Shown here in pieces: positions 3,842 to 64,000 of a stretch of 64,000 bases of DNA. Within the stretch, counting starts at the first letter, position 1. The number at the start of each line of letters is the position of its first letter. A model generated the notes under the pieces. The model saw only the letters and a list, made by a program, of their open reading frames with translations. It did not search any database and was not told the origin of the DNA. This stretch comes from a virus: IMG/VR virus record IMGVR_UViG_3300045988_088194; one strand, 5' to 3'. A program made the position numbers and the translations under genes.

Positions 3842-3849
3842 TATCTTTG
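3842..3849 (+). promoter_or_regulatory. Bacteroidota-type -7 box TATCTTTG
   Basis: Matches TAnnTTTG, 26 nt upstream of the giant-ORF ATG in a very AT-rich spacer. Confidence 0.5.
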
Positions 3850-3875: not shown

Positions 3876-6800
3876 ATGGCTTGTGTAAACACAAAGGAAA
3901 AAAGTTTTAAAGAGCTAGTTTCTAAATATGGTGCTTCATCAGGAACTGTAGAAAATGCCATTAAAATTTATATGGATAAAAATAATCTTGAGACCTATGA
4001 TACTAATTCTCAAGATTTCATAGACCATATGGATTCTTATTTTCAGCTTAAAAGCAGTAATTTCTACTCTTCTAAAGGTAAGTACAATAGAGCTCATGCT
4101 CTTTGGGAAAAAATAAATCCTACACAAAATGTAGCAGATATAAAGACTGCTACTAAAGAGTATAATGCTCTTGTTGAAATATTTGGAGAAAATAATGTTA
4201 CTGTTTTTGAAACTTCAGATGGAGGATTTAGAGTTAGGGCAGCTGAGCCTATATTTGGTGACGGTATTACTTCAGATAAGAAATTATTGAAGGAAATGTC
4301 TGACATTCTTTCTAAAGCTCCTAGAGATAAAAATGGTAATCTATTAGCTCCTAATGGTAAAAAGTCTAATTTAACTGAAAGACAATATGCTCAAGTAAGA
4401 ACTAAAGCTTTTAAAGAGTGGTTTGGTGATTGGGAAACATTAGCAGAAGGACATAATAAAAAACTTAATTTACCTGATAAACCATCTGGTCTTACTGATA
4501 CTTGGATAAAAGATAATATAGTAGAATTTAAAGGTTTATCTACGGGAACTAAATATAATATAGGCTATTCTGGTGGAAGATATTTTATCGTTATAAATAT
4601 TAATGGAATTAATGTTCCATTCTATAAATCCTCAGGTTTAGGTGGAAAAAAGAATGTTGAAGCAGGTAAATGGTATCCATTTTTTGGGATATCTAAAAAA
4701 GGATGGTTAAATAAGACTACTGAGGAGGAAATAAACAACTACTATAATAGTCAAGTACTTGAATTAATTTCTAATAAACTAGATTCATTATTTAATAATG
4801 AAGACTATGGTATAGAAATAGTAAATGGTATTCCAGTAAAGAAGGGTAAACAAGCTAATAACGCTATAGATTTAAACTTTACAGACGGAGAAAAAGTCAT
4901 AAATAAAGACCTTAATCCTACTGAAAATCATAAAGATAATACTGTAAATATAGTAAATAGTAATATTGAAAAAGTTAAAAGGAGTATATCTTATACTACT
5001 TTAAATAATAAAGTCTCAAAAGTAGTAGATGAAAATGGTGAACCTTTGGTTGTTTATCATTATACAGATAATGAAAGTCTGACTAAATTTAGTACAGAGT
5101 TTGATAATTATTTCTCAAAGGAAGGTGGTACTAAGAAAGCTATATTCTTTACAACAGATAATGTTGTACCTGGTAGTGAAGATAACTTCTTAACTAATAG
5201 AAAAGCTAAGCTGGCATTATTCTTAAATATAAAAAACTTAGAAGAGTTTCATGGTACTAAAGAAGATTTGCATAAACAAGGAACTTCTTATAGAGAAATA
5301 GTAAATAAATCTTCTGAAAGAGCAGGTCTTGAAAATGGTATAGTATTTACTGGTTTTGATGATAACAAGAAGGAGAATCAAACTATATATGTTGTTCATA
5401 ATCCAAATCAAATTAAATCAGCTACTAGTAATACAGGAGCTTTTTCTAAAATTAATGATAGAATAGACGATTTTGAAAGTAATGTAAAAGTTACTGTTGA
5501 ATATACTCCTATAGGAAAAAGTAGACAAACTTATACTATTAGAGGGAACAAAATCTTTAATAAAGAAGGTAAAGAAGTCTTTAAGACAGACAGTGTAGAT
5601 AGAAACAAGATTTTTGCCAATCTTGCAGTACAGCAAGGTAGAGCAGTAGTAGTAAATCATAAGAATAAAGAGTATGTTGTAAACAACAGAAATCAGATTA
5701 TCTCTGTTACTACTGGTAAAATGATGCAGTGGGATGAAAAGAATGGAGATAGAAATGCAATCATTAAAGCTGCTCAGGAAAAGTTTAGTAAAAACAAACC
5801 CTCTGAAAGTATTCAAAAATCTGCGTCTTTTAATTGGGGAAGAACTTCAGATAATAATTATGAAGTATCTTCAAAAGGAGATAAAAGATTTTCTGCTCTT
5901 AATGCTACCTTTAAGAAAGGTACTGTTATAGATGGAGTAGATGTAGGAGGAATGACCATTGAAGATGTATATCAGAAGGTCATTAAAAAGAGTGGTAAAG
6001 GTAAAGCTCCTGCTGTAGATAGTAAGTTAAATATTTCTTACAGAGTAAGTACCGAAGGAATTACTAAGCAATATGGAGTAGTAATAGATAAAAATTTAAA
6101 AAGAAATTATAGTGAATGGCAAAATGCTAATCCAAATGGTATAGTTGCGTATAGAGTTAATTATAGTAAATACAATACCCCTGAAGAAGCACAAGCTGGT
6201 AGAATAGGTAATCCATTTTCTGAAGGTATAGGACAAGCTAATAAAGGGGAAGATACTGTACAAAAGTTCTTTATTTGGCTTACTACTGGAAATAACTTTG
6301 GTAATCCAAAAGCTACTGAAGAATATAGACAAGCCATTCTTCATAAACTAATTAGTACTCCAAAAGGAACTAATATATTATATTATACTGAACTCAATAG
6401 ACCATCTCATGCAACTGTATTAGGTTATTTAATTAATCATAAGGAATTTATAACAAACTATAAAGATAGTGCAGAAGATTTCTCTTATACTGAAGGTTAT
6501 TTACCATTGTGGCAAGAATGGGCTAAACAAAACCCTGAATTAATAGAGGAACTAAGAACTAAAGCAGCAGGTAAAACTCTTACTGACCAGTTTGCTAATA
6601 CAAGAGTAAGTCAGGCAAGAGCTTTGGCTGATATTCTTAATTCTACTAATACTAAGTCAGAAACTATAGAAGAAGCTCCTATATTTGAAGAAGAAAATAA
6701 TAATATGCAATCTGCTAAAGAACTTGTAGATAGGATGATAGCAGATTCAAGAGAGCATATTAAATTTAACAAAGAGGACCATTCCTATATAGTAGATGGA

Positions 6801-9800
6801 AAAAAGGCTGATACCAGTGTTACTCAGTTTATACATGGTAAGAAAGACCTTGGTCAATGGGGAACAGCAGCCTCTGCCATAGGTACAACAGCAGACAGTG
6901 TCACAAGAGACTTCTTCAAAGGTGAGCTGAAAGATGAATATCCAAACTTGTCAGATAAGGACCTTTCCTTTCTCAAGCATGACTTGAAGAGCCTTAGGAA
7001 CTTCTTTGACAAGAAGTTTGGAAAGGACAAATATACAGTAGTGACTGAAGAGTTCCCAATAGCCTCAAAGTATACATACACTGACAAGGATGGAAAACTT
7101 AAGGGAGGTGTAATGGCAGGAACTATGGATATGCTTATCTATGATAATGAAGGTAACTTCTATATCTATGATATGAAGACTTCAAGAAGTGGTCTCAATG
7201 AGAACAAGGTTGCTGGATATGCAAAGCAGCTGACACTCTATAAGGCTATTCTTGAGGCCAATTATCCAGAGCTGAGAGGCAAGATAAAGGAGCTTAAACT
7301 TATTCAGTTTAGGGTAGGTTATCCACAACCTGGAGCTGACTTCATCTATTCAGCAACTGATGGTCAGTTATATCTTAATAATGTTCCTATTCAGGAGACT
7401 GAAGACTACTATGCACCTCACTTGGATTTTACTGGAAACAGTCTTGACAATCAGGTGCTTGTTCCAGTAGAACCTGTAAGTATGGATATTCACTTTGAAG
7501 GTATGACTGAAGATGAGGTAGAATCAATGAGGGAGGAAACAAGAGAGCCAGAGAGTACTGAGTTCTCACAGAATGAAGTAGATAGCCAGAGAGATAACCT
7601 CTATGGAAACCCTCTGCTTTCAGCTACAGAGAGAACATTCCTTGCTAACAATGTAATGAGTCTTACTTCCTTTATTGTTACTCACTTACAGACAAATCCT
7701 GAGGCTAATCAGTTCTATTTTGGAGACCAATTCAGTAGGCTCAACTTTACTAAGATGTCAAGAGAAGACATCATAAGTACTGTTGGGGTAACAAAGATAT
7801 TTGAGTATATAAAGGAAAGATGGTATAATCCTGATAACAGGACTGACATTGATGATTTTGATACTCTTGACAAGTTACAGATAGCCTATGACAACTGGGC
7901 AGCCCTTGTGAAGTCTGCCTATGCAAAACTTATAACTCTTGAAGGTGTTACAGTAGTTGCTGCAAGACCTGATGAAATAAGTAGAGAGGATATTGAGACC
8001 TCTTTTCAAGAACAGATAGATGCTGGTGAACTTGAAGAGAAAGAAAGGGAGTATTGGCAGCTTGGTATAAGAAACATATCAGCAAGGTCAAGTCTTAGTG
8101 GTGATATAAGAAGGTCATTTGAAAGGCTCTTTGCCATAGACTCCAATGGAAATCCTATAAAGGACAAGTTTGGTTTCAATTTTGATACTTTTGTAGATTC
8201 TGGTGTTGCTGTAAATAGTATCCTTGAATGGACCAGAACTGCTACAACTGTAGAAGAGATGGAGGAGATACTTGATGGAATGAAGGACTCTTATCCTTGG
8301 CTTAACTCTATCCTCAATAAGATAAAGGAAGAACCTTTCAGGTCTCAATTCTTTCAGAATTTCAGAAAGGACTTTACACAGTATAGTATTGTAACTGTGG
8401 AAAGGGATGAGAAAGGAAATAAGGTATATCAGACTCAAATAATTAACACTAAGGGAGCATCACAGTCTGTACTTGATGAGATTACTACCTATTATAATTC
8501 AGGACTTATGCAGAACATCATAATCACTGCTGATGGTATTGAAGGTAAGGGTAGGGTTAATGTCAAGAATGTTGAGGCTCTTAAGGCTGAGAAGGACAAA
8601 ATAGTATCTGACCTTAAGGGTGCATTCACTGCTGTGAGAAAGGAAGTATATAATAACACTCTCAAGAACTCTGTACCTAAGATTACAAAACTCCTAAATG
8701 AGTTAGGAATAAGAGTAGATGCCAAGACAGTCTCTAATACCATAGTTGGTAAAGAAAGACCTAAGGACATTAATAACTCCCCAGTAATGAAACTTCTGAG
8801 TGAAATGTCCTATATGTTTGATGCCTTGCTATCAAAGAAGGACTCTACCTCATATAATCCTCTTCTTAAAGGGGAGGAGAAGAACATCTATGGAAATTAT
8901 AAATCTATAGTTGGACTTATGAGCAAGTATATTCAGGACAGTATTGAGTCATCATCCTATGAGAATGGCAAGATGCACTACTCTTTTGTAACTCCTTCTT
9001 ATATGGGAAAACTTATTCTCAATCTGAAAGATGCCATTGGCAATCCAAGCAAGTTCAATTCATTTATGGAAGAGAATTATGGGTCATATAGATGGTTCAG
9101 GGAAGAGGATGGAACTTGGAATAATGCATGGCTTGAGTTGATTTCTGAAAGTAAGGATGCAAGACAAGGCTTGGAACATAAAGTTCAGTTGTCATTTGAT
9201 GGAACTCCTTACACTGATTTGAGTGAGTTGGGATATACTCTATCTCTTATGAGTGAGTACTTCTATGATAAGGGAAGTAGAGGAAAAGGTCCTCAGTGGG
9301 CATGGTACAGAGTTCCTATGCTTTCAAATAAACCTTCTTCCGAATTTATAAGGTTCAAGAGATACTCAGGTTCTGAATATAAGAGAAGAATCAAGAGGGG
9401 ACTCAAAATGGTTCTCAATCAGGAAGTTCTTAGGTTCAGAGCTGTACTTGAAAGAAGTGTGAATGCAAACATTGAACCTATCTCAAACTTTGATATAAGT
9501 TCTAAAGTCCTGAAGAAGAATCCTCAGATTGAGGCTAAGATGAGAGCTGGAGAACCTCTTACTCATGATGACCTTGTGAAGAATGGAAAACTTATAACTG
9601 CTGCAAGTGGAGCTTCCTTTAAGTTCCTTGAAGCTTTCAATCAAAATATAGTTGAAGGTGATGAGCTTGGAATGATGCTTATAGACAAGATAAATGGTGT
9701 CAGTGTAAATGAGGATTCTTTTGACAAGTTAGTCAATCAGAACCTTGATTCTTACATGGACATTATAGTAAGCAAGGAGATTTCACAGTGGGAGAAGATT

Positions 9801-12800
9801 GGTCTATTTGATACAGAGGAAGTCAGAAGGGGCGAAGATGTTGAAACAAGATATAAGTACATATCTAATCTTACAAGGTCATACTCAACTATAAAGAAAG
9901 AACTGTTTGGAAAGGAGAGAAGACTCTCCAAGGAACAGAAGTCTGAGATAATGCAGGTTATGGAGTCTGAGGCTAAGGCTAATCTTGAAGAGTATGTATG
10001 GAATGATATGTTTGCAACTATAAACATAATCCAACTTACTGCTACAGACCTTGCCTATTACAAGAATGTAGAGGACTTCCAGAAGAGGTATGCTCAAGTC
10101 CATTCTCCTGCAATGAGATTGAATATAACTGCAAGGGATTCAAAGGGTAGACTCTATTCTGCTGATGGAATGGAAAGAACCATGTACATTACAGATTATG
10201 AGGTAGAGTCTGACATAATTCCTAATGTTGAAGAGATATTTGACCAGAGGATTTCTTCAATCTCTGACCCTTCTGAAAAGGCTAACATGAAAATGATGAA
10301 GGACCTCATAGTTGATTCTTTCAGGAAGATTAATGTAGCAGATGCTCAGGGGTATTCATCACCTACTTCATACAGAAAGAAGATGGGTATGATGGGTAAG
10401 TGGTCTGATGAAATGGAAGAGGCTTATAATAGAATCAAGAGAGGAGACTTCAATGTCAATGACCTTGGTGTTGTCTGGCAGCCCTTAAAACCTTTTGTCT
10501 ATTCCCAGATTAGGAAACCAGGAGGTTCAGATGCTCTTTCTGAACTTAAGGTTCCTGTTCAGAACAAGAACTCTGAATATCTTCTCCTCCTTGCAGATGC
10601 ACTTATGAGAGGGGGAAAGAAGCAGAGCAAACTTGCTGCTATCTTTGATTTCATGGAGGAATCTGCCTATGATGGCAGAGAGACCCAATTCAATCCAAAG
10701 ACCAACACTTATGAGGTTGTAAAGGAAGGTACATACAATGGAAAGGGTATTGATACTGTCCAGTTTGAATCATCTGTGAAGTCAGGAAAGTCTGGAGTTG
10801 TGAACATAAATAAGGTAGAATCATATGAGGAAATTAAGAATATCCTTAATGAGGCTACATATATCAATTCTGACAGAACTGCTTCTTCTGATAATAATAA
10901 TGACAGATATAATGTCAATTACATCCATACAATCCCTTTTGAAGATTATGGCATTCAGCAGGAAGTTCCTGCCCACTTGGTAGACCATGAGCAGCTCATG
11001 GGTTCTCAGATGAGAATACTTAGTATAAGTGACATTACCCCAGGTACTGAGTTCCAGATAGGAGATGAACATCTTAAGAGTGATGAACTTATCAGTGAGT
11101 ATCAGAATCTTATAAAAGAAAACATTGAGCAGAGTTTTGAAAGACTGTGTAAAGATTTCAAGGTCAGAGGAACAAGGCTTGAAAGGAATAAGGCACTTGA
11201 GAAAATACTTCAGGAAGCTATTGAAAAGGACCAGAGGTATGGTGCTGATATACAGAGAGCTTGTTCTCTTGATAAGAATGGAGAATTTATAATCCCACTT
11301 AGTGACCCTATACAGTCTATCAGAATACAGCAACTTCTCAATTCTATTATAAAGAGCAGGATAAACAAGCAGAAGGTAACTGGTGGTCCAGTAGTTCAGG
11401 CTTCAGTATTTGGTATGTCAGATGACCTTTCAATAAGATTCAAGGACAAAGATGGAAATCTCATTGAAACTTATAGTGAGTTTGTAGAGAAGAGGGGTTT
11501 CTCAAAGGATAAATCTTCAGCAGCTAAATATAAGAAGTTCATTAATGACAAACAGGCTTCTGTGGCATACTTTGAGTGCTATATGCCTATTCCTTCTTCT
11601 GAACTTGAAGAAGCTCTTACAAGATATGATAAGGATGGACATGCATACATAATATCAATGGAAGAAGCAGTTAAGGAAGGTATAATTCCTGAAGAAATGA
11701 GAAAGGCTATTGGATATAGAATTCCTACAGAGGATAAGTATTCTATGGCTCCTCTCTATATAAAAGGATTTCTTCCTAAAGCAGCTGGAGAGGCAGTGAT
11801 GCTCCCTAAAGAGATTACTCTTCTTTCAGGTTCTGACTTTGATATTGACAAGCTGTATGTGATGCTTAAGACTTTCACTCTCAAGAGGAGAACTGATTGG
11901 GGTAAACTTGAAAAAGATATTCTCAAATCAAGCAAGGCTAAAGGAGAAGAGAGAAAGAAGAGAAAGGAAGCCTTGAGGATAGTCATTGAGCAGATTAAGG
12001 CTGGAATGGAGTTTAGTGAAGGCACCTTTGAAATGGCTGTGCATGACTATTATTATGACCATAGAGACAGGTATGATAGAGCTTCTTTTGAACTGTCTGA
12101 TGGTGGTACTGATAGAAGGAACAACAGGATATTTGACCTTCAGTGGGCTGTTCTCACTAACCCTGACACAATGAGCAAGATGTTTAATCCTGGTTCATTT
12201 GATGTACAGAAGAAGACTGCAAGAATTGTAAGGATACTTCAGGAGACAAAGGGTCATACCTATCAGGAGTTGAGCAAGCTTAATCTTGACCAGCTTGATG
12301 AAATACTTGACTCTTCAACTGACAGGAATATCATCTACTCAACTTCTCAGGTGTACTTCCATAAGCAGAATATGACTGCTGGCAAGTTGATTGGTATATT
12401 TGCTAATAATAACACCAGTCACGCATTTATTTCTATGCAGGGAATAGACTTAAAGTTAGGAGATGACCTTAAGTTTACATTTGATGGAGTCACAGTAGAT
12501 GAGAATCAAAATAATAGATTGGACCCACTGAAAGGAAAAAATGGTAGTTTAATTAGTAAAACTATTGCAGGTTTTCTTGCAGCCTCTGTGGATGCTGTGA
12601 AGGACCCAGTACTTAACTTTATGAATCTTAATACATTTACTTCTGGACCAGCAATGGTTCTGGCAAGACTTGGTTTTGATTCTGACAGTATAGGTCTGCT
12701 TCTCTCTCAGCCTATTATAAGAAGGGTGACTGATGAATACTTCAGGAGGAACAATGAGGGTTACATCTCAGCTGAGGACCTAATTGATGAGTTTCTTGAA

Positions 12801-14399
12801 CAGGACAAGAATGCAAAGGGTTATGAAAAGACTCTTACTCTAACTAACTTCTCTAAAGAAGAACTTGCTCAGGGTATATCACTTAATAGTGATAAAGGAG
12901 ACTTTCAGACAAGAGCACTTATTTTGTTCAAGAGGTTGTCAAAAATATCACAGGACTTTGGCACACTTACATTCCTTACTAAGTTCAACTCAGTAACCAA
13001 TGCTGTTGGTCCAACCATTGCAGATACCCTTGTAATGAAGCAGAGATATAAGAAGTTCCTTGACAAGTTTGAGGATGGCAATGCAATCTTCTCAGATAAT
13101 GCAAAGAATGTCATTCAGAACTCTCCTATTCTTGATGCCTTCTATACAACCACAGTATCTGATACTGGGGCTTCTCAGTTGATATTCCAGGGATATTTCC
13201 CTCAGTACTCTGATAAATTCAATCAGGTTCTTGGAAAGTTCAGAGAAACCACAAAGGCAAATGTAGATAGCAAGACTATCAATTCCCTTGTCAGTGACTT
13301 TGTTCTTTACAAACTTACTGGAGGACCAAACCCAGTTCTTAATTCAGATGGAAAGGTAAGAGAAGAGTTCATCCATGACTTTATAGTAGAGTTTAAGGAG
13401 AAGGCTGCTGGAATAGTAGATAATGAACTTATCAAGATTATAACTGTTAAACCTTCTACTGGAAAATGTCCTGTTCCAACTTTGGAAGCAAAGACTGGTG
13501 GATATACTCAGGATGTTCAAGAGAGAGTAAGAGATGCTTGGACAAATCTTATAACAAATGAAAGTACAAGAGACCTTGGAGTCAAACTATTCTTCTACAA
13601 TATGTACAGAACAGGACTTTCATTCAGTCCTAAGACTTTCCTTCACCTTGCTTCAACTGATGTGAAACTTGCAATTCCAGGATATGTTGAAAGTATTAGG
13701 GATATCAATTATAATGACTCCTTTGATGTGAATGACTTCCTTCTTCAGTATAGAAGGAATCATACAGACAACTTCAGGGTTGTTCCTCATATAACACAGA
13801 GAAAGGGAATTGCATCTTCTATCACTGAAGATAGAGCTGGTAACAGGAAGATAACCTTCACATTTGCTTCAGACAGTGCTTCTTCACAGTTCATTGTCAA
13901 GAAGGTAAAAAGGGGAAGTGGAAAAGTATCTACTAAAGAGACAATAGCTGCTCCTGTTATCCTCTATAATGATAAGGTGTATTTCAATCCTGAAATCAAC
14001 TCAGATGGTTCTATTACTTATACTGAAACAACAACTCTTGGTAATACCAACAACTTCCTTGAATATGATATGAATGAATCTGGAAGTGAGATAAGAACTT
14101 CTATTCAGAGAACTTCTGAAGAAGATGTACATGAGAAGGAGGTTCAGGAGTCTCCAGCAAGAGAAGTTCCTGAGGATGATGGAGAGACTGAAGCAGTAGA
14201 GCTCTCAGAGACTGATATTGAGAATATACTCAGTGAGATATTTGATGAGGGTGAACTGGACAGTCTTATGACATCTCTTGTCAAAGGACAATCAAAGAAG
14301 GTAGACAAGTATAAGAGTATGATTGAAGAGCACACAGACTCTGAGACTGCTTCTAAGGTTATGAAGAAAATGATAGATATTGTAAAGGGAATTTGCTAA
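3876..14399 (+). CDS. giant virion RNA polymerase polyprotein (crAss-type vRNAP) with N-terminal polyvalent-protein modules and a PD-(D/E)xK nuclease domain
   Basis: Uninterrupted 3507-aa ORF. DFDID (DxDxD) at nt 11835-11849. Nuclease motifs D1085, D1099-M-K1101, Q1118xxxY1122 (nt 7128-7241). WFGDWE at 4419. VVYHYT...QIKSA module at 5016-5450. GNPF...HATVL DUF4326-like module at 6150-6440. Confidence 0.8.
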   Translation: MACVNTKEKSFKELVSKYGASSGTVENAIKIYMDKNNLETYDTNSQDFIDHMDSYFQLKSSNFYSSKGKYNRAHALWEKINPTQNVADIKTATKEYNALVEIFGENNVTVFETSDGGFRVRAAEPIFGDGITSDKKLLKEMSDILSKAPRDKNGNLLAPNGKKSNLTERQYAQVRTKAFKEWFGDWETLAEGHNKKLNLPDKPSGLTDTWIKDNIVEFKGLSTGTKYNIGYSGGRYFIVININGINVPFYKSSGLGGKKNVEAGKWYPFFGISKKGWLNKTTEEEINNYYNSQVLELISNKLDSLFNNEDYGIEIVNGIPVKKGKQANNAIDLNFTDGEKVINKDLNPTENHKDNTVNIVNSNIEKVKRSISYTTLNNKVSKVVDENGEPLVVYHYTDNESLTKFSTEFDNYFSKEGGTKKAIFFTTDNVVPGSEDNFLTNRKAKLALFLNIKNLEEFHGTKEDLHKQGTSYREIVNKSSERAGLENGIVFTGFDDNKKENQTIYVVHNPNQIKSATSNTGAFSKINDRIDDFESNVKVTVEYTPIGKSRQTYTIRGNKIFNKEGKEVFKTDSVDRNKIFANLAVQQGRAVVVNHKNKEYVVNNRNQIISVTTGKMMQWDEKNGDRNAIIKAAQEKFSKNKPSESIQKSASFNWGRTSDNNYEVSSKGDKRFSALNATFKKGTVIDGVDVGGMTIEDVYQKVIKKSGKGKAPAVDSKLNISYRVSTEGITKQYGVVIDKNLKRNYSEWQNANPNGIVAYRVNYSKYNTPEEAQAGRIGNPFSEGIGQANKGEDTVQKFFIWLTTGNNFGNPKATEEYRQAILHKLISTPKGTNILYYTELNRPSHATVLGYLINHKEFITNYKDSAEDFSYTEGYLPLWQEWAKQNPELIEELRTKAAGKTLTDQFANTRVSQARALADILNSTNTKSETIEEAPIFEEENNNMQSAKELVDRMIADSREHIKFNKEDHSYIVDGKKADTSVTQFIHGKKDLGQWGTAASAIGTTADSVTRDFFKGELKDEYPNLSDKDLSFLKHDLKSLRNFFDKKFGKDKYTVVTEEFPIASKYTYTDKDGKLKGGVMAGTMDMLIYDNEGNFYIYDMKTSRSGLNENKVAGYAKQLTLYKAILEANYPELRGKIKELKLIQFRVGYPQPGADFIYSATDGQLYLNNVPIQETEDYYAPHLDFTGNSLDNQVLVPVEPVSMDIHFEGMTEDEVESMREETREPESTEFSQNEVDSQRDNLYGNPLLSATERTFLANNVMSLTSFIVTHLQTNPEANQFYFGDQFSRLNFTKMSREDIISTVGVTKIFEYIKERWYNPDNRTDIDDFDTLDKLQIAYDNWAALVKSAYAKLITLEGVTVVAARPDEISREDIETSFQEQIDAGELEEKEREYWQLGIRNISARSSLSGDIRRSFERLFAIDSNGNPIKDKFGFNFDTFVDSGVAVNSILEWTRTATTVEEMEEILDGMKDSYPWLNSILNKIKEEPFRSQFFQNFRKDFTQYSIVTVERDEKGNKVYQTQIINTKGASQSVLDEITTYYNSGLMQNIIITADGIEGKGRVNVKNVEALKAEKDKIVSDLKGAFTAVRKEVYNNTLKNSVPKITKLLNELGIRVDAKTVSNTIVGKERPKDINNSPVMKLLSEMSYMFDALLSKKDSTSYNPLLKGEEKNIYGNYKSIVGLMSKYIQDSIESSSYENGKMHYSFVTPSYMGKLILNLKDAIGNPSKFNSFMEENYGSYRWFREEDGTWNNAWLELISESKDARQGLEHKVQLSFDGTPYTDLSELGYTLSLMSEYFYDKGSRGKGPQWAWYRVPMLSNKPSSEFIRFKRYSGSEYKRRIKRGLKMVLNQEVLRFRAVLERSVNANIEPISNFDISSKVLKKNPQIEAKMRAGEPLTHDDLVKNGKLITAASGASFKFLEAFNQNIVEGDELGMMLIDKINGVSVNEDSFDKLVNQNLDSYMDIIVSKEISQWEKIGLFDTEEVRRGEDVETRYKYISNLTRSYSTIKKELFGKERRLSKEQKSEIMQVMESEAKANLEEYVWNDMFATINIIQLTATDLAYYKNVEDFQKRYAQVHSPAMRLNITARDSKGRLYSADGMERTMYITDYEVESDIIPNVEEIFDQRISSISDPSEKANMKMMKDLIVDSFRKINVADAQGYSSPTSYRKKMGMMGKWSDEMEEAYNRIKRGDFNVNDLGVVWQPLKPFVYSQIRKPGGSDALSELKVPVQNKNSEYLLLLADALMRGGKKQSKLAAIFDFMEESAYDGRETQFNPKTNTYEVVKEGTYNGKGIDTVQFESSVKSGKSGVVNINKVESYEEIKNILNEATYINSDRTASSDNNNDRYNVNYIHTIPFEDYGIQQEVPAHLVDHEQLMGSQMRILSISDITPGTEFQIGDEHLKSDELISEYQNLIKENIEQSFERLCKDFKVRGTRLERNKALEKILQEAIEKDQRYGADIQRACSLDKNGEFIIPLSDPIQSIRIQQLLNSIIKSRINKQKVTGGPVVQASVFGMSDDLSIRFKDKDGNLIETYSEFVEKRGFSKDKSSAAKYKKFINDKQASVAYFECYMPIPSSELEEALTRYDKDGHAYIISMEEAVKEGIIPEEMRKAIGYRIPTEDKYSMAPLYIKGFLPKAAGEAVMLPKEITLLSGSDFDIDKLYVMLKTFTLKRRTDWGKLEKDILKSSKAKGEERKKRKEALRIVIEQIKAGMEFSEGTFEMAVHDYYYDHRDRYDRASFELSDGGTDRRNNRIFDLQWAVLTNPDTMSKMFNPGSFDVQKKTARIVRILQETKGHTYQELSKLNLDQLDEILDSSTDRNIIYSTSQVYFHKQNMTAGKLIGIFANNNTSHAFISMQGIDLKLGDDLKFTFDGVTVDENQNNRLDPLKGKNGSLISKTIAGFLAASVDAVKDPVLNFMNLNTFTSGPAMVLARLGFDSDSIGLLLSQPIIRRVTDEYFRRNNEGYISAEDLIDEFLEQDKNAKGYEKTLTLTNFSKEELAQGISLNSDKGDFQTRALILFKRLSKISQDFGTLTFLTKFNSVTNAVGPTIADTLVMKQRYKKFLDKFEDGNAIFSDNAKNVIQNSPILDAFYTTTVSDTGASQLIFQGYFPQYSDKFNQVLGKFRETTKANVDSKTINSLVSDFVLYKLTGGPNPVLNSDGKVREEFIHDFIVEFKEKAAGIVDNELIKIITVKPSTGKCPVPTLEAKTGGYTQDVQERVRDAWTNLITNESTRDLGVKLFFYNMYRTGLSFSPKTFLHLASTDVKLAIPGYVESIRDINYNDSFDVNDFLLQYRRNHTDNFRVVPHITQRKGIASSITEDRAGNRKITFTFASDSASSQFIVKKVKRGSGKVSTKETIAAPVILYNDKVYFNPEINSDGSITYTETTTLGNTNNFLEYDMNESGSEIRTSIQRTSEEDVHEKEVQESPAREVPEDDGETEAVELSETDIENILSEIFDEGELDSLMTSLVKGQSKKVDKYKSMIEEHTDSETASKVMKKMIDIVKGIC

Positions 14400-61289: not shown

Positions 61290-61318
61290 GGTATGTTAAT
61301 CTATGCCCTGCGGGCAGC

Positions 61319-61633
61319 TTAGATGACATGTTGATTAAGGAGAGAGTTTATACATTTGGCACTCCATTCTACTATAGGCTCATCATTATATTCATTGAGG
61401 TACTGTCCTTCCAAGAATATGGCATGGAACAGTTCATGCAATACAGTAACCCTGATATTATTCTCCTTATAAGGATTACCGTTTATATCTCTCAATGATA
61501 TTCTTATAGTCCTTGTATTTGGGTCTGTCTCCCCCAATAGGGTACCTCCCTCATCCGCCTTGAAGTATTTATCTTCAAACTTAATACTCCAAATAGAGTC
61601 AAATATCTTAAACTTTCTGTTCTTAAACTCCAT
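61319..61633 (-). CDS. small HExxH metallopeptidase-like protein
   Basis: VTVLHELFHAIFLEG motif. 104 aa. Confidence 0.5.
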   Translation of the reverse strand: MEFKNRKFKIFDSIWSIKFEDKYFKADEGGTLLGETDPNTRTIRISLRDINGNPYKENNIRVTVLHELFHAIFLEGQYLNEYNDEPIVEWSAKCINSLLNQHVI

Positions 61634-61744
61634 ACTTCTCCTTATTCTACTGAGAGTTTAACTAATAGACCTATCTTAATAAAGAAGGGACCTGGGTGGC
61701 TCTTTTTCATCACCCTGGCTTGAGATTAAGGCTCTCAACATATA

Positions 61745-61783
61745 TAGTCCATCCCCTGGTTATATAATATTAGTCCATCCCCT
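61745..61783. repeat. direct repeat TAGTCCATCCCCT x2 (26-nt period)
   Basis: Exact 13-mers at 61745-61757 and 61771-61783, inside an ORF-free region that is GC-richer than other intergenic DNA. Confidence 0.8.
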
Positions 61784-61938
61784 TTTATCACTGCCCTAAA
61801 GCAGCCTCCTCATTACCAACCCTTGGTCAATATCCACTACTTTCTTGACTTGGTGAGAAGCAGTTCAGTCCTATATATGCCCTCCTACCTAAAAAGGTAT
61901 CAGTATTCTCAGTATACTTGCTATTTCTACTGTAGGTG

Positions 61939-61946
61939 CAAAGGTA
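61939..61946 (-). promoter_or_regulatory. -7 box TACCTTTG (extended CTTACCTTTG)
   Basis: It sits about 300 nt upstream of the first minus-strand ORF (ATG 61633), which implies a long leader or a separate RNA. Confidence 0.4.
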
Positions 61947-62008
61947 AGTAAAATAAATGATAAATCCAAATAATTAAGGAATTATTTTTATAGGACCACT
62001 AAATTTTA

Positions 62009-62041
62009 TTTTTTTTTTGATTTTTTTTTTAATTTTTTTTT
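62009..62041. repeat. three phased T-tracts (T10-GA-T10-AA-T9)
   Basis: Runs at 62009-62018, 62021-62030 and 62033-62041, at the divergent junction and just upstream of motif copy 1. Confidence 0.9.
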
Positions 62042-62062
62042 CTATTTGTATGAGTGGGATAT

Positions 62063-62094
62063 AACAACACAACACTCCCCCTGGTCATTGGGAG
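62063..62094 (+). promoter_or_regulatory. conserved early-promoter-like motif, copy 1
   Basis: AACAACACAACAC-N13-TGGGAG, 57 nt upstream of ATG 62151. Confidence 0.55.
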
Positions 62095-62150
62095 AATGGG
62101 TTCCCTCCCCCCACACATCAGTGAACCCTAACACAAATACAGTTAGTACC

Positions 62151-62456
62151 ATGAGAACATTCTTAGGTAAAGAGGTAAGGACATACTCAGAGTCCTCCTG
62201 GAAGCTGGTCCCAGGAAGTGCCCAGCAGATTAAGAAGGCTGACCTCAAGAAGGTCAAGTCCATAGAGGTGAAATACTCAGAGGAGTATGACCACCTCTAT
62301 GCTGTGGTACTGCTTGACACAGGCTATGTGTCATGGCAGTTGGACCGCAAGTTCAAGGGTGAGGAAGGTGACACCATTGACCCAAGCACCTTCATGGTGT
62401 TCCAGCTCACCAATGGTGAGAAGACCATCACCAGGTGCACAGGTAGAACCCTGTAG
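62151..62456 (+). CDS. small early protein, paralog family A
   Basis: I use ATG 62151, because the track TTG start at 62046 would place the motif inside the ORF. Paralogous to 63334-63624 (RTY..W, L[DS]R, EEGD[TS][IV]D). Confidence 0.55.
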   Translation: MRTFLGKEVRTYSESSWKLVPGSAQQIKKADLKKVKSIEVKYSEEYDHLYAVVLLDTGYVSWQLDRKFKGEEGDTIDPSTFMVFQLTNGEKTITRCTGRTL

Positions 62457-62460
62457 CAGA

Positions 62461-62496
62461 GAGAGACCAGCAGTAGCTGGTCATCTCTTTTTTCTA
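62461..62496 (+). terminator. intrinsic terminator
   Basis: Stem GACCAGC/GCTGGTC (62465-62471 / 62476-62482) followed by TCTCTTTTTTC. Confidence 0.75.
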
Positions 62497-62500
62497 TAAA

Positions 62501-62532
62501 AACAACACAACATTGTTTTCATTCTCTGGGAT
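62501..62532 (+). promoter_or_regulatory. conserved early-promoter-like motif, copy 2
   Basis: AACAACACAACAT-N13-TGGGAT, 96 nt upstream of ATG 62628. Confidence 0.55.
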
Positions 62533-62627
62533 AAAAACAAGTCTAACAATTAATAGACTTAAACATTTTTATAGGCTTTGAGTAGCCTTATCCTTAGACT
62601 AATATTAAACTAATAATATTTTGTAAT

Positions 62628-62930
62628 ATGAAGAACATTCATAATTGTGATGAACTTATTAAGTTCTTGGTAAATGAGTTTGCATCATATCCTTTGGATT
62701 GTGTAGAATTTCAGGGAGATATAGTGGAGATTACTATGACTGATTATACCTATGAGGAGTTAGGTTTCATAGTAGATAATACTCTTATATCAATAGCCTC
62801 TAGTGCAGAAGGTTACTTTGATGTAAAAGCTTGTACAGCTCCTATTAAATTTGGAGGACTTGCTAGAAGTATATGTATACCAGACTATGTTAAGAATGAG
62901 CTTATAGCTACTTTGTCTGGAGAGTGGTAG
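62628..62930 (+). CDS. small early hypothetical protein
   Basis: 100-aa ORF, AT-rich. Confidence 0.5.
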   Translation: MKNIHNCDELIKFLVNEFASYPLDCVEFQGDIVEITMTDYTYEELGFIVDNTLISIASSAEGYFDVKACTAPIKFGGLARSICIPDYVKNELIATLSGEW

Positions 62931-62933
62931 ATT

Positions 62934-62965
62934 AAAAGAGGATAATATCCTCTTTTAGTTTTTTA
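62934..62965 (+). terminator. intrinsic terminator
   Basis: Palindrome AAAAGAGGATA/TATCCTCTTTT followed by AGTTTTTT. Confidence 0.7.
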
Positions 62966-62969
62966 TGAA

Positions 62970-63001
62970 AACAACACAACATTCTATCCATTATTTGGGA
63001 T
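62970..63001 (+). promoter_or_regulatory. conserved early-promoter-like motif, copy 3
   Basis: AACAACACAACAT-N13-TGGGAT, 59 nt upstream of ATG 63060. Confidence 0.55.
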
Positions 63002-63059
63002 AAACAATCTAATAAACAATAATTAGATTAATACTTACTAAACATTTTAAGTTAGGAAT

Positions 63060-63170
63060 ATGGAAAGAATATTAGGTGATATTTATGGAATACTTATGGC
63101 TGCTGTACTAATAGGATATATCATTGTATGGTTCTATAATGAAGAATGTAAAGGACCAAAAGATGAATGA
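63060..63170 (+). CDS. 36-aa single-TM micro-protein (below the track cutoff)
   Basis: Hand translation MERILGDIYGILMAAVLIGYIIVWFYNEECKGPKDE. It is positioned after motif copy 3 in the same way as the other early genes. Confidence 0.45.
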   Translation: MERILGDIYGILMAAVLIGYIIVWFYNEECKGPKDE

Positions 63171-63191
63171 CCTAATGTGTTATGTGTGGGG

Positions 63192-63245
63192 AACTCTCAG
63201 TTTTTATACCTTATAATATATAGGTATAGGCTGGGAGTTTAATTT
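63192..63245 (+). terminator. compound hairpin (possible terminator)
   Basis: Outer stem AACTCTCAG/CTGGGAGTT (63192-63200 / 63231-63239) enclosing inner stem TATACCT/AGGTATA. The T-tail is weak. Confidence 0.4.
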
Positions 63246-63255
63246 CTTAGAGTAA

Positions 63256-63287
63256 AACAACACAGCATATTCTCCATACTTTGGGAC
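63256..63287 (+). promoter_or_regulatory. conserved early-promoter-like motif, copy 4
   Basis: AACAACACAGCAT-N13-TGGGAC, 47 nt upstream of ATG 63334. Confidence 0.5.
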
Positions 63288-63333
63288 ACAAGATATGTGG
63301 ACCAACTAAGTTTAACTACAAACATCAAACACT

Positions 63334-63624
63334 ATGGGATTTTTGGACAAACTCCGTACTTATGCTGGCTCTTGGAGTGAGGCTGGCAGGGAACACCTCA
63401 GCAAGGCTGAGGTAGCTCAAGTGGCATCTGCCACAGTAGTTGAAGGCCAATATGGCCTTTCAATGTGCTTCGTGATGAAGGCTGGAGGCAAGAAATTCAT
63501 GCCTCTTAGTAGGGACTCTCAACTTGAGGAAGGTGATTCTGTGGACATTAAGTCTGTGGAAATCATCACCCTGGAAAGGGATGGTGATGAGGACATCTAC
63601 AGAGCAGATGGTACAGCAGAGTAA
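63334..63624 (+). CDS. small early protein, paralog family A
   Basis: 96 aa, shares its motifs with 62151-62456 and is GC-richer than its flanks. Confidence 0.55.
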   Translation: MGFLDKLRTYAGSWSEAGREHLSKAEVAQVASATVVEGQYGLSMCFVMKAGGKKFMPLSRDSQLEEGDSVDIKSVEIITLERDGDEDIYRADGTAE

Positions 63625-63640
63625 TCTGCCTCTTAACATT

Positions 63641-63690
63641 AGGACAGAATGGTCTATTCTATGACTGTTCTGTCCTTTTATTTTTATTTG
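63641..63690 (+). terminator. intrinsic terminator
   Basis: Stem AGGACAGAA/TTCTGTCCT (63641-63649 / 63668-63676) followed by TTTTATTTTTATTT. Confidence 0.65.
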
Positions 63691-63790
63691 TCTACTGTGA
63701 TGAACTTAGAGCAAATCACTGCATATTCTTGCAAAGATTGTCCTATTTTTAGTAACTAAATTACTTACAACTTACAATATTTTCACTAAA

Positions 63791-64000
63791 ATGAAAACAA
63801 TAGTATACATAATCAAAGGCATACTGATGTATTCAACTCTAATGTATTGGATTCTTGCTATCTGTCTTGCAGATTCTTTTACATTCACTGGAATACTGAT
63901 AGTGTTTGGAGTGGGGTTTGCAATGATATTCATCTGCAAGTACACACTCACACTTGAAGATGTGGCAATACTTACAGGAAATGACTCTAAAAAATTATAA
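63791..64000 (+). CDS. small membrane protein
   Basis: 69 aa with two hydrophobic helices. The stop codon is at the window end. Confidence 0.5.
   Translation: MKTIVYIIKGILMYSTLMYWILAICLADSFTFTGILIVFGVGFAMIFICKYTLTLEDVAILTGNDSKKL

Follow-up and report, generated by a model that had tools for sequence, protein, structure and literature searches.

A fixed-spacing element ahead of the early genes of a crAss-like phage as a candidate promoter for the virion RNA polymerase

Which signal marks the first-expressed genes of a crAss-like phage, and which polymerase reads it? The question is raised by the 64,000-nucleotide (nt) stretch of viral DNA analyzed here, IMG/VR record IMGVR_UViG_3300045988_088194 (the window), in which four copies of a short element lie on the plus strand, each upstream of a small open reading frame (ORF). 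A first-pass annotation had proposed the element as a promoter for the RNA polymerase (RNAP) that is injected from the virion. From the sequence comparisons described below, this reading emerged as the best supported one. With slightly better than even confidence, we take the four elements to be lineage-specific promoters of monocistronic immediate-early units, which would be read by the injected virion RNAP with a start at or just after an invariant TGG.

The occurrence of the element in the window was determined by pattern scans. The pattern AACAACACARCAY-N13-TGGGA has exactly four matches, all on the plus strand and all with the 13-nt spacing that had been described; no fifth match appeared in the window, even when two mismatches were allowed. 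The chance expectation is 0.01 matches, and four matches were reached in 0 of 100 shuffles. The element measures 31 nt (13 + 13 + 5) instead of the 32 bp given originally, so that each end coordinate had been placed one base too high. Copy 1 (62063-62093; AACAACACAACAC-TCCCCCTGGTCAT-TGGGA) has a C-rich spacer, and together with the ~35 nt downstream it shows no differences among seven close relatives. Copy 2 (62501-62531), copy 3 (62970-63000), and copy 4 (63256-63286) lie ahead of an extra cassette gene, an ORF of 36 amino acids (aa), and a 96-aa ORF, respectively. The gaps from copies 1 to 4 to the ATG are 57, 96, 59, and 47 nt, which reproduces the reported range of 47-96 nt, and the CAT described at spacer positions 7-9 is present in copies 2-4 and not in copy 1. 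The 9-mer AACAACACA by itself occurs in the window at these four places only. With the refined pattern AACAACACA-N17-TGG and up to one mismatch, the same sites were the only matches in the window (0.33 expected). In a position-weight scan built from all relatives the four copies scored 39-59 bits, and nothing in the rest of the window reached 8 bits. The motif has no dyad symmetry, and DNA folding of all four copies on both strands gave no shared hairpin inside it. An Rfam search of 61300-64000 at a permissive threshold returned only one sub-threshold chance match.

Conservation was assessed in close relatives, namely IMG/VR contigs of 103-104 kb and several metagenome contigs, and in diverged genomes to which homologs of the fourth early gene led. 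Each close relative carries three motif copies at the same places as in the window, and in all diverged genomes (L043/L055, L044, L046, L054, L050/L053, and L052) the element precedes each of the first three small plus-strand units. A relaxed pattern (AACAACACA with at most one mismatch, N17, TGG) was scanned on both strands of 15 related loci covering 176.5 kb. All 46 matches are on the early-gene strand at terminator-ORF junctions, three per complete early region and four in the window. There were none elsewhere in the 176.5 kb, neither in coding regions nor on the opposite strand, and the restriction to the early region and to one orientation noted in the first-pass annotation extends to the relatives. 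Whole-contig scans of two relatives of 103-104 kb likewise placed all copies in this block. As background, ~700 kb of unrelated viral DNA gave ~8 matches beyond those used to select the DNA, and in relaxed scans of IMG/VR and metagenome contigs nothing but single chance matches turned up beyond the known clade.

A sequence logo was built from 25 sites in eight lineages, with gene-4 identity down to 56%. Positions 1-9 are nearly invariant, followed by A12 (25/25), T14 (22/25), C20 (21/25), T22 (21/25), and T26 (23/25). The TGG at positions 27-29 is present in 25/25 sites, and the spacing is unchanged in every site. The mean information per position is 1.39 bits in the motif compared with 0.53 upstream and 0.34 downstream, with a collapse right after TGG. 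The conserved core is AACAACACA-NN-A-Y-T-(pyrimidine-rich)-T-TGG with a 17-nt spacer. Of the consensus proposed initially, the 9-mer and TGG are retained, whereas the two bases after TGG are variable (GA, AA, CA, TA, GG, AG, and CT) and RCAY is only partly conserved, which leaves a core of 29 nt. The distance from TGG to the ATG ranges from 20 to 185 nt across the sites. The element is asymmetric, conserved, and confined to intergenic sites in the orientation of the genes, which is the pattern expected of a promoter specific to a phage polymerase.

In the window the copies are embedded in a regular arrangement on the plus strand. Early gene 1 (62151-62456; 101 aa, 50% GC) is followed by a terminator hairpin at 62458-62490 (z = -5.6) with a T-tract, and copy 2 begins 10 nt on. 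The extra cassette gene (62628-62930; 100 aa) is followed by a hairpin at 62929-62961 (z = -4.3), 8 nt ahead of copy 3, and early gene 3 (63060-63170; 36 aa, hydrophobic) by a hairpin at 63191-63240 (z = -2.5), 15 nt ahead of copy 4. After early gene 4 (63334-63624; 96 aa), a strong terminator at 63641-63676 (z = -6.95) closes the motif-bearing block. One stable hairpin lies 3' of each small ORF and all four have T-rich tails, in line with the earlier statement that copies 2-4 come right after a hairpin. Because each small ORF has its own motif, leader, and terminator, the region consists of four insulated units. The distances between copies (438, 469, and 286 bp) are irregular, and each copy is locked to a terminator-ORF junction.

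The fourth copy of the window is explained by an additional unit, made up of copy 2 and the gene at 62628-62930, that lies between gene 1 and the 36-aa gene. The extra gene is absent from the close relatives compared (L014, L015, L023, L030, L031, and L038) and present in near-identical copies of this genome from other assemblies. In L044 a homolog occupies the same position behind a degenerate motif. The copy-2 spacer of the window is found in one relative type and the copy-3 spacer in another. Depending on the lineage, the hairpin-motif junctions flank a unit with 0, 1, or 2 different ORFs. This middle unit (window 62501-62969; L043 4787-4920; L044 4330-4900) is a hotspot of gene turnover; in L043 and L055 it comprises the motif and hairpins with no ORF and possibly specifies a small RNA.

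The window is from a crAss-like phage. Its capsid protein shares 81% identity with the one from Bacteroides phage crAss001, and its minus-strand genes include those for the major head protein, the portal, and the large terminase. No phage close to the window at the DNA level was found in GenBank. The minus-strand structural genes extend up to 61633 and the small plus-strand genes start at 62151, with a leftward host-type promoter and a T-tract array between them. Housekeeping promoters of Bacteroidota have the consensus TTG...TAnnTTTG (-33 TTTG / -7 TAnnTTTG), in which the -33 TTTG lies ~19-21 nt ahead of the -7 box. Ten sense-strand intergenic sites of this type were found in the window, mostly in the extended form CTTACnTTTGC; they lie no more than 150 nt ahead of nine minus-strand genes and the polymerase ORF. 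No such site lies within the early block, and no TAnnTTTG, which the Bacteroidota sigma-A consensus would require, is present in or downstream of any motif copy. Since host-type sites precede ten other genes and none precedes these four, the genome uses two distinct classes of upstream signal, and the view that the motif is unrelated to the TAnnTTTG boxes was borne out. The leftward promoter mentioned above, TTG...TTACCTTTG at 61939-61985 on the minus strand, belongs to the host-type class and is divergent from the early block. [quoted passage not shown] This division of labor matches the two signal classes seen in the window.

The candidate virion RNAP of the window is encoded by a giant ORF at 3876-14399 on the plus strand (3507 aa), with DFDID at aa 2654 (nt 11835-11849) and a host-type promoter at 3842. 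Besides the DFDID polymerase part, the ORF contains an exonuclease-like segment (PHROG matches, aa 936-1143). The catalytic part of the polymerase shares 33% identity with crAss001 gp50 and 37.5% with its best match in GenBank. The contrast between 33% for the polymerase and 81% for the capsid suggests, at the level of sequence, that divergence or exchange affected the polymerase module and the early region separately from the structural module. In the phages with the AACAACACA motif, the polymerase cores are 65-95% identical to that of the window; no cultured member of this clade was found. DAC15, cr126_1, and cr106_1, which represent three genera, have polymerases with 73-76% mutual identity and ~28% identity to those of the window or crAss001; the DAC15 enzyme is gp076. 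At the syntenic junctions these phages carry a second motif, CTCATTACTCCTCC-N7-YTGR, in four or five copies each, on the early strand and with fixed spacing. The uncultured contig L051 (polymerase sequence not retrieved) has it at syntenic junctions as well. The second motif type is present in DAC15 and DAC17, both isolated on Bacteroides thetaiotaomicron, and in uncultured relatives of Kolpuevirus 'frurule' (a B. cellulosilyticus isolate; own sequence not inspected). Both motif types have the 3' YTTGR and a pyrimidine-rich tract in common and differ in the upstream element. Across the sequences compared, the motif type tracks the virion-RNAP clade, with three motif states in three clades.

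The same features have to be weighed against the main rival, in which host RNAP reads the elements as promoters by means of an alternative host sigma factor or a virion-delivered phage protein. The promoter-like anatomy fits host RNAP equally well. The 9-mer stands at about the position of the -33 element, the 3' half, ATTCTTTGG, is loosely similar to the TTTG in the -7 box of Bacteroidota, and the DAC15-type motif ends in TTGACA/TTGAAT-like hexamers. Host RNAP would also be compatible with the finding that the virion-RNAP transcripts of phi14:2 share no common motif. However, the TA of TAnnTTTG is missing from the element and its invariant part is TGG and not TTTG, while ten other genes of this genome are preceded by a clean host consensus. 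At several sites a downstream -10/-7 box would not fit, as the ATG follows TTG(R) by 16-21 nt. Furthermore, clades whose virion polymerases are very different have different upstream elements, even though capsid identity is 71-81% and every cultured relative has a Bacteroides host. We therefore regard recognition by host RNAP as unlikely. A variant in which TTG(G) serves as a host -33/-35 element was considered separately and rejected, as no conserved box follows and some of the ATGs are too close.

The position of the start codons also bears on where transcription would begin. One ATG follows TGG by 21 nt in L044 and one by 20 nt in L046, so that transcription from these elements, if they act as promoters, must begin at TGG or shortly after it. 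In many copies a hairpin extends from the GG of TGG, with stems that differ between lineages in a compensatory way. For the first copy, the stems are GGGAG/CTCCC in the window, GGGATGAA/TTCATCCC in L043, GGAGG/CCTCC in L044, GGCGG/CCGCC in L050, and GCAGG/CCTGC in L054. For the last copy they are GGCAC/GTGCC in L043, GGGGTAC/GTATCCC in L050, and GGGG/CCCC in L044. The middle copies have no compensatory stem at TGG. The stems resemble the 5'-terminal stabilizing stem of a transcript that starts at this point, which we take as a hint only.

In outline the element also resembles boxA-boxB, with a CA-rich stretch that is unstructured and, in many copies, a hairpin behind it, and the downstream genes are without recognizable promoters. 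Both features would suit an element that acts in RNA, as a signal for 5'-leader processing, nut-like antitermination, or translation on transcripts begun further upstream. To this explanation we assign a low probability. On the plus strand, neither class of promoter is found ahead of copy 1, and the sites come after efficient-looking terminators, which is too late for an antitermination signal. The distance to the ATG varies over the range given above, the hairpins are conserved neither in position nor in size, and Rfam gave no match. The antiterminator alternative raised in the first-pass annotation was also examined as a lambda nut-type site and is a poor match: the sites come after terminators, there is no promoter ahead of copy 1, and the hairpins lack conservation.

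The location of the early block within the genome was investigated using DAC15. In this phage the gene-4 homolog lies inside an annotated, exact direct terminal repeat of 1,842 bp, and the record ends were confirmed to be identical. With up to one mismatch allowed, the DAC15 motif is confined to the terminal repeat across the whole 99.5-kb genome. The boundaries of this repeat fall 3 nt upstream of the copy-1-syntenic sequence and 20 nt past the gene-4 homolog. The terminal repeat of the DAC15/DAC17 cluster was called with PhageTerm, and crAss001 is reported to have long terminal repeats (Crassvirales review). By synteny with the DAC15 repeat, a presumptive direct terminal repeat of the window spans ~62054-63645 (plus strand) and contains all four copies. 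Copy 1 would then be located at the very tip of the DNA at one virion end, reading inward. The long contigs are circularly permuted assemblies, and their ends gave no proof of a repeat. The 1,581-bp contig L172 (Logan contig SRR25936232_387188) runs from 9 nt upstream of copy 1 to the stop of gene 4; it is equivalent to window positions 62054-63623 and thus covers almost exactly the predicted extent of the repeat, with strain-variation breakpoints as an equally possible cause.

Two further alternatives can be judged on this geometry. The element could mainly be an operator, bound by a phage regulator such as a small early or middle protein that turns the early units on or off, with the actual promoter weaker and overlapping. 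It is repeated, strand-specific, and present at every early unit, and a small transcriptional regulator is annotated in the early region of crAss001. Against this, the element lacks dyad symmetry, and as a 29-nt asymmetric element of fixed spacing directly after terminators it leaves no room for a separate promoter. In addition, by analogy with DAC15, copy 1 would lie a few bases from the end of the DNA. An operator is improbable, if slightly less so than a signal in RNA. The least probable of the alternatives is that the repeats serve DNA transactions, as sites for terminase or packaging recognition, replication initiation, or cassette recombination. The homologous block is a terminal repeat in DAC15, and the unit between the copies is a hotspot of gene gain and loss, both of which such sites would accommodate. 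However, the spacing of the copies is tied to gene boundaries and not to helical phasing, their orientation is always that of the genes, and homologous recombination between promoter copies explains the cassette exchange as well. Iterons and packaging-site repeats were considered as separate candidates and were rejected because the spacing is irregular and each copy is locked to its terminator-ORF junction.

Several observations weigh against promoters for the virion RNAP. Neither motif is found in crAss001, where the AACAACACA type is absent even at three mismatches. A de novo repeat search of the crAss001 early region and a fuzzy search with its copy-1-syntenic sequence gave no comparable repeat. 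The link between polymerase clade and motif type comprises three clades and is confounded by overall relatedness and shared ancestry. phi14:2 is the only crAss-like phage with mapped early 5' ends, and no common upstream motif was found there; in vitro, its gp66 used single-stranded templates only. The motif block of the window is probably a terminal repeat, an assignment extrapolated from the single genome of DAC15. In a shuffle test of the 5'-terminal hairpin, 9 of 31 sites beat 90% of the shuffles, an ambiguous result. Finally, the CA-rich motif and host-type promoters are both absent from the plus-strand genes between 63791 and the TROVE gene, and the genes after 63791 have homologs that are early in crAss001. 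This signal-less stretch extends over ~5-6 kb in relatives (L014 4458-8160, L031 4731-10260; window 63791-64000), in which a host-type promoter next appears ahead of the TROVE-domain gene. As the genes after 63791 are without either signal, the motif cannot be the sole early signal, and read-through or unrecognized signals must exist.

In crAss001 itself, a weak ATTAATAG triplet is present over ~130 nt at 102331-102464 on the minus strand of the record (L017), in the long noncoding region after the terminator of the first early ORF. Two of the three ATTAATAG copies are then followed by N3-TTTG(G/A). The triplet may be an early signal of crAss001's own or an operator.

With these points considered, promoters for the injected RNAP remain the reading that we prefer. 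That transcription initiates at the elements, and that the virion RNAP and not host RNAP with a factor carries it out, we infer from their placement, the fixed-spacing core, its exclusivity, the contrast with host-type promoters, the clade-linked motif, and the DAC15 repeat. The proposed sequence of events would be as follows. The RNAP, the DFDID part of the ORF at 3876-14399, would be packaged in the virion, injected with the DNA, and then read the elements. The upstream 9-mer AACAACACA would act as the lineage-specific recognition element, and the pyrimidine-rich 17-nt spacer would set a fixed distance to the start, which would lie at, or within ~20 nt after, the invariant TGG. Each transcript would end at the hairpin terminator 8-15 nt ahead of the next copy. 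With the block probably in the direct terminal repeat, copy 1 would be within a few bases of the DNA end and transcription would proceed inward, as for the end that enters first.

A wider proposal can be made more tentatively, with somewhat less than even confidence. Together, AACAACACA-N17-TGG and the DAC15-type CTCATTACTCCTCC-N7-YTGR could represent the missing promoter of the crAss-like two-barrel virion RNAP. The specificity element would co-evolve with the polymerase, the initiation element YTTGR would be shared, and all copies would lie in the terminal repeat, the first of them near the DNA end. The polymerase would then load at the entering terminus and transcribe inward, which would couple early transcription to genome entry.

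The proteins of the early block and the neighboring noncoding regions were also analyzed. The gene-4 family comprises 97 homologous proteins with identities down to 56%. The proteins of genes 1 and 4 are distant paralogs (hhalign 88%, E = 3e-6). These two genes have 48-50% GC compared with 37% for the genome, and the family is kept across the early regions of Steigviridae. The AlphaFold model of the gene-4 family is confident (predicted local distance difference test score, pLDDT, 88) and shows a small beta protein. No significant neighbor was found for it in the PDB, the best being weak OB-fold-like proteins with E of at least 0.2, and a Pfam search of the early proteins gave no match.

An array of three long T-runs (62005-62045, plus strand) lies between the divergent host-type promoter and copy 1. 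The lengths of the T-runs vary among relatives, and the same array is present in crAss001, DAC15, cr106_1, cr126_1, and L051; in DAC15 it adjoins the terminal-repeat boundary, just outside the repeat. On the other side of the divergent promoter, a noncoding stretch of ~300 nt (61634-61938, minus strand) is nearly identical in close relatives. It is located downstream of the host-type promoter at 61939-61985 and upstream of an SprT-like gene and contains GGGGATGGACTA twice; it matched nothing in Rfam, and folding gave no significant structure (z = -1.15). The relative L030 has an unrelated sequence of similar length in its place. In crAss001 (L016, NC_049977.1), the annotated minus-strand gp2 at 279-680 appears to be antisense to an SprT-like ORF. 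A tblastn search with the SprT-like protein of the window matched crAss001 on the plus strand at 370-588 with 45% identity.

In the human gut, crAss-like phages rank among the most abundant viruses, and their early genes are read by an unusual virion-packaged polymerase related to the polymerases of eukaryotic RNA interference. No promoter consensus for any crAss-like virion RNAP was found in the searchable literature, and a 2023 review of Crassvirales does not use the word "promoter". A sharply defined candidate of fixed spacing would make the question of where this polymerase starts testable, the more so with a second motif in another polymerase clade. If the elements are indeed such promoters, the immediate-early, terminal-repeat block could be recognized by them in crAss-like genomes from metagenomes. 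Such promoters would also point to linked evolution of the polymerase and its cognate early region as one module, with the capsid genes remaining conserved.

The element was compared with known early-transcription systems. The promoters of phage N4 are DNA hairpins with a stem of 5-7 bp and a 3-nt loop, and the N4 enzyme is a T7-like single-subunit polymerase. As in the window, the N4 early promoters are present in few copies near one genome end, upstream of the first-expressed genes, and the candidate reader is a virion-carried polymerase within a protein of ~3500 aa. The two systems differ in that no conserved hairpin is found inside the window motif, which places the element outside the N4 hairpin-promoter class, and in that the window's polymerase carries the DFDID of the crAss-like two-barrel enzymes. 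The phage transcription program of crAss-like phages has been described as broadly N4-like (Crassvirales review). For the Thermus phage P23-45, an AT-rich promoter motif of gp96, a virion RNAP fused to the tape measure protein, has been tied to mapped start sites and chromatin immunoprecipitation sequencing (PMC10770324). As here, that motif lies upstream of pre-early genes, the two-barrel enzyme is delivered by the virion, and the motif is found only in relatives with that polymerase (PMC10770324). P23-45 differs in sequence, phage group, and host, and the evidence for the window is comparative only.

The position of the element between terminators and small ORFs has a counterpart in the promoter-early stem-loop (PeSL) cassettes of T4-type phages, which Arbiol et al. 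in 2010 reportedly described as a terminator-like stem-loop plus an early promoter that flank small variable ORFs of unknown function, the promoters being of the host sigma-70 type. In the window, too, a stem-loop and a candidate early promoter surround variable small ORFs, and the repeated signals coincide with gene gain and loss. The difference lies in the promoter, since the window motif does not match the host consensus. With the housekeeping promoter of Bacteroidota the element has in common the overall length, the two-part geometry, and a T-rich 3' part ending in TTG. It lacks the TA, has an invariant TGG and not TTTG, and carries a CA-rich 9-mer in place of the -33 TTTG; because it fails the consensus in this way, it falls outside the Bacteroidota sigma-A class.

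Promoters of the T7 group (T7, T3, SP6, and K11) are asymmetric, 20-30 nt long, and composed of a lineage-specific upstream part and a conserved 3' part at the start, which is often a G. The two motif types described here, with AACAACACA versus CTCATTAC upstream of a common YTTGR, show a similar division. The polymerase families are different, the T7 enzyme is made after infection and not injected, and there is no sequence similarity between the promoters. As in the T7 group, the putative specificity element changes with the polymerase lineage, in a comparison of three clades that is confounded by shared ancestry. Among the systems considered, the candidate promoters are closest in function to those of the N4 virion RNAP and of P23-45 and close in logic to those of the T7 group.

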